In this document: positions 2,086-2,418 of the stretch, one piece after another
How positions within the stretch are numbered: position 1 is the stretch's first letter
How the letters are laid out: every line of letters begins with the position of its first letter
Virus record (IMG/VR): IMGVR_UViG_2537561618_000005
Source of the DNA: a virus
Lineage: Duplodnaviria > Heunggongvirae > Uroviricota > Caudoviricetes
DNA: 13,194 nt
Reading direction: 5' to 3' (one strand)
Made by a program: the position numbers and the translations under genes
The notes under the pieces: generated by a model
Databases searched by the model: none
What the model was told of the DNA's origin: nothing
Seen by the model: the letters and a program-made list of their open reading frames with translations, nothing else

Positions 2086-2418
2086 ATGCTCACCTCAGAA
2101 CAACACAGGTGCTCCAATGAAAAAAGAAATTTTAGCGCAGAGTTTAAACGCGAATCCGCTCAACTGGTTGTTGACCAGAAATACACGGTGGCAGATGCCG
2201 CCAAAGCTATGGATGTTGGCCTTTCCACAATGACAAGATGGGTCAAACAACTGCGTGATGAGCGTCAGGGCAAAACACCAAAAGCCTCCCCCATTACCCC
2301 GGAACAAATTGAAATCCGTGAGCTCAGGAAAAAGCTACAACGCATTGAAATGGAGAATGAAATATTAAAAAAGGCTACCGCGCTCTTGATGTCAGACTCC
2401 CTGAACAGTTCTCGATAA
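2086..2418 (+). CDS. IS911 OrfA-like HTH protein; canonical start appears frameshifted, in-frame alternative ATG at 2086
   Basis: Frame 1 reads ...[98 protein letters not shown], which matches IS911 OrfA from memory. The expected ATG at 2117-2119 is in frame 2 because the following A-run is 6 nt (2120-2125), apparently one shorter than canonical. The nearest in-frame ATG is 2086, with GAGG 5-8 nt upstream. Confidence 0.55.
2367..2373 (+). promoter_or_regulatory. A AAA AAG programmed -1 frameshift heptamer of IS911 (OrfA to OrfAB)
   Basis: ATATTAAAAAAGGCTACC near the 3' end of orfA; orfB is in the -1 frame relative to orfA. The IS911 frameshift motif is well characterised. Confidence 0.65.

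Follow-up and report, generated by a model that had tools for sequence, protein, structure and literature searches.

A homopolymer undercall is the probable cause of the out-of-frame orfA start in an IS911 copy of a Shigella flexneri draft contig

The window analysed here is the whole contig AFHC01000013.1 (13,194 bp) of draft assembly GCA_000213475.2, which derives from Shigella flexneri 4343-70 (PMC5429569). It carries an IS911 copy in which the usual start codon of orfA is followed by six adenines (A6) where other copies have seven (A7), so that orfA is out of frame as deposited. We consider A6 to be a homopolymer undercall of draft sequencing or assembly, and not biology, with a probability of roughly 0.8. 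The one-base difference is unique within the element, copies with matching flanks carry A7, and sister drafts shorten homopolymers in a length-dependent manner. According to this explanation, an otherwise perfect IS911 copy with A7 at orfA codons 2 to 4 would have been recorded with A6. The true element would then be A7, OrfA and the OrfAB transposase would start normally at the ATG at position 2117, and the ATG at 2086 would merely open a short upstream ORF, whose fusion to orfA exists on paper only.

Structure of the IS911 copy

The features of the window that bear on the analysis are as follows.

358 to 1688: IS2, a member of the contig's chain of repeats.
1734 to 2021, minus strand: 95-aa gene, here called F95, which abuts the left inverted repeat of IS911 and provides a unique left flank for finding same-site copies elsewhere.
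2045 to 3292, plus strand: IS911 copy (IS3 family), 1248 bp, 99.0% identity to PGAP-annotated E. coli copies.
2045 to 2080, plus strand: left inverted repeat (IRL), 36 bp, beginning TGAAGTGG; read from the sequence, with the ends located by pattern in all copies.
2078 to 2096, plus strand: predicted RNA hairpin GAGGUGA-UAUGC-UCACCUC, −10.6 kcal/mol, z = −3.7 relative to shuffled sequences.
2086 to 2418, plus strand: orfA body frame as opened at ATG 2086, 110 codons and a stop, from translation.
2106 to 2111, plus strand: CAGGTG, Shine-Dalgarno (SD)-like sequence of the usual orfA start, anti-SD duplex of −7.7 kcal/mol.
2117 to 2233, plus strand: ORF of 38 codons, out of frame with orfA, from translation; it is now headed by the usual orfA start, ATG 2117–2119.
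2120 to 2125, plus strand: A6 run, the single base at issue, with A7 in other IS911 copies; G at 2126.
2367 to 2373, plus strand: intact slippery heptamer A AAA AAG, at which the programmed −1 frameshift leads from orfA into orfB.
2445 to 3284, plus strand: intact orfB, the catalytic part of the transposase, from the ORF list and Pfam.
3257 to 3292, plus strand: right inverted repeat (IRR), ending CCACTTCA, identical to the IRR oligonucleotide sequence of PMC2909936.
3296 to 4447, plus strand: N-terminally truncated coat gene of a P22/Sf6-like prophage (PF11651, P22_CoatProtein), abutting IRR.

A preliminary description of this DNA, made from its sequence, had named the element IS911. The 99.0% identity upholds that name; it exceeds the threshold of at least 95% and was measured against PGAP-annotated copies ('IS3-like element IS911 family transposase'). 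Imperfect terminal inverted repeats of about 36 bp, of the form 5'-TG...CA-3', lie at 2045–2080 and 3257–3292, and the published length of the IS911 inverted repeats is 36 bp (PMC2909936). The orfA body occupies frame 1 and orfB frame 0, which is −1 relative to orfA, and the slippery heptamer is the one with a described role in the programmed −1 frameshift of IS911 (PMC2909936). The orfB product has the DDE integrase core, with Pfam matches to rve (E = 2.9e-32), rve_3 (E = 2.6e-10) and HTH_21.

Apart from the A-run, the copy is a textbook element. It shares with the canonical IS911 of E. coli and Shigella the 36-bp inverted repeats, an orfA with HTH_Tnp_1, the A AAA AAG site, an orfB with rve, and 99–100% nucleotide identity. 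It differs in three respects: it has one A fewer after the start codon, which puts orfA out of frame as deposited, it has no 3-bp target duplication, and its orientation to both flanks is opposite to that in most assemblies. The missing A makes it 1248 bp long, one base shorter than the 1249 bp of the copies in complete genomes.

Reading frames at the orfA start

In IS911 the helix-turn-helix-containing orfA is read from an ATG about 72 nt inside the left end. The corresponding ATG of the window, at 2117, does not share the frame of the orfA body, a mismatch for which an artefact in the sequence as deposited is probably to blame. The preliminary description had reported that this ATG is followed by A6 and then G, one A too few for the OrfA frame, and both direct reading and alignment to A7 copies bear this out. 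Alignment of the window with a pair of E. coli IS911 copies annotated by PGAP shows it to be short by exactly one A of A7, and in such A7 copies the PGAP transposase start is the ATG equivalent to 2117. The frames, too, are as they had been given, with ATG 2117 in frame 2, and ATG 2086 and the orfA body in frame 1. The ORF from ATG 2117 encodes 38 aa (MKKEILAQ...FPQ), ends with the stop codon at 2233 and has no Pfam match. The A6/A7 difference is a single-base length change in the longest homopolymer of the element, and not chance.

Read from ATG 2086, orfA yields a product of 110 aa. HTH_Tnp_1 matches its residues 13–84 (E = 9.6e-14) and is retained from profile position 4, and from KRNFSAEF onwards the product equals a 100-aa protein that its sources name 'IS911 ORF1' and that occurs on 662 contigs. 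The in-frame upstream start had been noticed before, with an extension put at 11 residues; the start is there, and the net gain is 10 residues, with a 13-residue segment taking the place of the usual MKK. In A7 copies ATG 2086 heads merely a 16-codon upstream ORF, a figure taken manually from the A7 sequences of the alignment.

Comparison of draft and complete genomes

Draft copies with A6 were paired with copies from complete genomes that have matching flanks. The counterpart of the window copy is in CP034060.1 (L022), where an identical 300-bp left flank is joined to IRL. The two copies are identical over 1248 bases except for one extra A in CP034060.1, giving A7, and CP034060.1 comes from a strain other than 4343-70, which leaves room for a true, strain-specific deletion. 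Two further pairs differ across the whole element by one A only, namely L009 (AKMZ draft, A6) and L056 (A7), and L027 (AFGV draft, A6) and L026 (A7). The A6 copy L013 is distinguished from L038 and L060, both A7, by one A and one SNP, and L014 (A6) and L042 (A7) have the left flank in common. Every pair has A6 in the draft and A7 in the complete genome, and in four of them the difference is one A in the homopolymer (in one case with the additional SNP).

Runs of other lengths and at other sites were also one base short in drafts relative to complete DNA. This was the case for about 6 of 142 5-mers (∼4%), 3 of 30 6-mers (10%), 8 of 14 7-mers and the single 8-mer (1/1), and 3 of the 8 7-mers outside IS911 were shortened. 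At several of the shortened sites two independent comparators concur against the draft. Shortening thus rises with run length and hits unrelated sites in drafts of the same series, as is to be expected of an artefact. Together with A7 at the same junctions, this length dependence is a signature of homopolymer undercalling, and we infer that this error process also gave rise to the A6 call of the window. The pattern resembles the miscalls of flow-based (pyrosequencing-type) methods, both in the one-base contraction of the longest run and in the rise of contraction with run length at non-IS911 sites of sister drafts. The sequencing platform of AFHC may have been 454.

The 13.2-kb window contains no homopolymer of at least seven bases and seven runs of exactly six. 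Over ∼7.1 kb shared with CP034060.1 there is one indel, located at the sole site where the comparator has a 7-mer. That the contig is otherwise locally free of indels counts to some extent against an undercall, as does the quality of some comparators. CP182556.1 (S. flexneri SFBU1023) and CP178302.1 (E. coli ECMA0423), from which L034–L064 are taken, show many scattered one-base indels and mismatches; between L014 and L042, for example, there are 58 gaps and 105 mismatches in 5 kb. Both records are 'complete' and represent their species, and they are weak references for fine-scale comparison.

Occurrence of the A6 state

The preliminary description had allowed that the reference IS911 might itself have A6 at this position. 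Reference-like copies carry A7: a scan of one genome per species, using a pattern that admitted A5 to A8, gave A7 in 33 of 33 IS911 starts. When exact full-length A6 matches to a 68-nt query centred on the A-run were counted, A6 was present in 7 of the 3147 E. coli records that the query matched, every one of them from a single family of enterotoxigenic E. coli (ETEC) plasmids, and in 17 of 1124 plasmid records. The ETEC copy is an IS911 remnant interrupted by IS30 that is common to seven separately assembled plasmids. It resembles the window copy (e.g. in NZ_CP025917.1) in having A6 at the same position, and PGAP places its pseudogene start at the equivalent of ATG 2086, but it is decayed, with 96.7% identity, and truncated by IS30. 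The A6 state was also found in complete Shigella and E. albertii records, some of them with 3-bp target duplications of their own. These records, like the seven plasmids, speak against an undercall, and slippage from A7 to A6 appears to occur in nature, with genuine A6 alleles existing elsewhere.

The exact 110-aa product was found on 30 public contigs. Among the ten places listed, eight are S. flexneri drafts of the accession series to which the window belongs (AFGY, AFHD, AKMV, AKMX, AKMZ). The product occurs at many different loci, with up to three per assembly.

Leader RNA and translation signals

The preliminary description had pointed to a GAGG 5–8 nt upstream of ATG 2086. The motif is present, at 2078–2081, and its distance from the ATG is 4 nt. 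It lies within GAGGTGAT, an 8-nt complement to the tail of the 16S rRNA, and the duplex of this SD with the anti-SD (−12.4 kcal/mol) is in the top 1% of 279 ATGs of the window. The same GAGG takes part in the predicted hairpin, whose 7-bp stem would pair the SD with UCACCUC at 2090–2096 and hold ATG 2086 in the loop.

In longer leaders, CACCUG at 2068–2073 is predicted to be able to pair with the orfA SD, CAGGUG at 2106–2111 (z = −2.7). When a transcript comes from outside the element, such pairing could mask the ribosome-binding site of orfA. Fold-back protection of the translation signals of transposases occurs in IS10 and IS50. The IS911 leader is like these in that it is predicted to pair CACCUG with the orfA SD and to enclose ATG 2086, and unlike them in that its folds are predicted from a single, nearly invariant sequence family. 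A scan of positions 1900–2300 for consensus promoters found nothing.

Alternative explanations

The preliminary description had left three options side by side: an inactivating mutation, a switch of start codon and a homopolymer error. The A7 copies with the same flanks favour the last, and the switch to ATG 2086 is the least supported. Should the deletion be real, plain inactivation would be its most likely meaning, although we regard it as an unlikely account of the window. It would leave a 38-aa nonsense peptide from ATG 2117 and neither OrfA nor OrfAB, and the copy, its ends being intact, would be mobile only through the transposase of other IS911 copies. A 7-base homopolymer is a natural hot spot for slippage, and the frame from ATG 2117 does close after 38 codons; Shigella genomes are rich in decaying IS copies, such as the adjoining IS2 with a nonsense substitution in orfB, and the A6 of the seven independently assembled ETEC plasmids sits in a decayed remnant. 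However, but for the one A the window copy matches base for base an A7 copy at the same junction that looks functional, and drafts shorten long homopolymers outside IS911 as well. Inactivation would also require the same change in many copies of several drafts, while the complete copies with matching flanks are all A7. A further idea is that the deletion is real and that low-level slippage of the ribosome or RNA polymerase on A6 restores the orfA frame, giving a down-tuned element. Slippage on A-runs is reportedly known in IS3-family elements, and here the A-run stands directly before G, so that the letters resemble an A AAA AAG site. We consider this idea highly improbable. The frame of ATG 2117 reads AAA AAA GAA and is not phased as A AAA AAG, and there is no stimulatory structure downstream (2097–2160, z = −0.04), for which reasons −1 ribosomal slippage on A6 was rejected as a rescue; six adenines are, moreover, short for transcriptional slippage.

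It is very unlikely that a real deletion is offset by a switch of start, in which ATG 2086 would give a 110-aa OrfA and an OrfAB longer by about 10 residues, both functional. A real deletion compensated in this way would offer a modest but elegant case of a transposase regulator changing its start site. In favour of a switch, ATG 2086 shares the orfA frame and follows a sequence that forms a strong anti-SD duplex, and HTH_Tnp_1 is kept except for its first three profile positions. PGAP and other pipelines select this ATG, but their choice of start reflects ORF length only. The N-terminus of the protein can also bear additions, since a large TrxA tag is tolerated by OrfAB[1-149], which still binds IRR as a dimer, if less avidly (PMC2909936). 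Against this, the SD and ATG 2086 both lie within the stable 7-bp hairpin that is predicted for the leader, and a divergent relative, L041, has ACG at the position of ATG 2086. IS911 has a weak promoter of its own, which probably lies in the inner part of IRL; if it does, transcription from it could start downstream of 2086. Perfect 3-bp target duplications of their own surround several A6 copies from different loci, as would suit a start switch. Yet L042, which is A7, has the same left flank as L014 (A6, duplication GAG) and the same left-hand copy of the duplication. Since L042 has A7 at the left junction of L014, the end that this comparison covers, the A6 state did not accompany the insertion of L014, and target duplications were not accepted as proof that A6 copies transpose. 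We likewise give little credence to A6 as a real, spread and active IS911 variant or subfamily in S. flexneri whose OrfA and OrfAB are remodelled at the N-terminus by starting from ATG 2086.

Junctions and contig layout

The window copy of IS911 is not flanked by a 3-bp target duplication, its left flank ending in TGA and its right flank opening with TGG. The two flanks come from different loci in other genomes, which indicates that the copy was either rearranged or mis-joined, and the missing duplication fits this. Relative to both flanks IS911 is flipped when compared with most other assemblies (junctions at 2033–2052 and 3285–3304). Elsewhere the F95 flank is joined to IRR and the coat flank to IRL, at the same nucleotides (plus or minus three nucleotides, TCA or CCA). 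In the window the F95 flank is joined to IRL and the coat flank to IRR; the left joint occurs otherwise in CP034060.1 only, and the right joint was seen nowhere else, the exact IRR-coat junction (window 3280–3311) having no match in the species-representative genomes. Homologous recombination between IS copies was rejected as the cause of the flip because it cannot exchange the end that is joined to a flank, which leaves end-targeted re-insertion or a mis-join of the draft.

The contig is a chain of repeats, made up of an IS66-family fragment, IS2, the 95-aa gene, IS911, the prophage and ISSfl3. It is a small island amid repeats, a setting where draft assemblies are least reliable. Both of its ends (93–407 and 11673–13194) are IS66-family (ISSfl3-like) sequence, and the ORF at 93–407 is a C-terminal fragment of an IS66 transposase that runs into the left end of IS2. 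In IS2, orfB is broken into ORFs of 194 aa and 88 aa by one nonsense substitution, which is shared with L020, L022 and L024 and is not present in L017, L019, L021 and L023. The P22/Sf6-like prophage spans the region from the truncated coat gene to the ejection proteins. Neither the 389-aa TTG-start form of the truncated coat ORF nor the 159-aa long ORF has a record in the protein collection.

Consequences for annotation

Few insertion sequences have been studied as thoroughly as IS911, and draft sequence can be expected to contain noise such as a homopolymer that is off by one base, so the A6 call carries little biological weight. Its effect is on annotation. So that the ORF remains open, pipelines choose ATG 2086 or ATGs further upstream, such as that at 2041, from which the depositors of AFHC01000013.1 called an OrfA of 125 aa that straddles the flank and IRL. 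Gene callers thus silently repair such errors by upstream starts, and the resulting artefactual N-termini have entered public protein collections under a number of accessions.

Versions of 'OrfA' with an extended N-terminus, 110, 111, 124 and 125 aa long, are on deposit for drafts of Shigella and E. coli, among them a 124-aa protein from K-315. A6 copies carry at least the 110-aa and 125-aa forms and one 124-aa product (L027). A one-base change of another kind was seen in L002 (NZ_AP023230.2, E. coli YJ4, 1501–2748), an IS911 beside fecE that has A5G, not A6G, at the frameshift site. The deletion there does not fuse orfA and orfB, and PGAP still labels the gene 'programmed frameshift'. Further IS911 hits have the 1248-bp length of L002.
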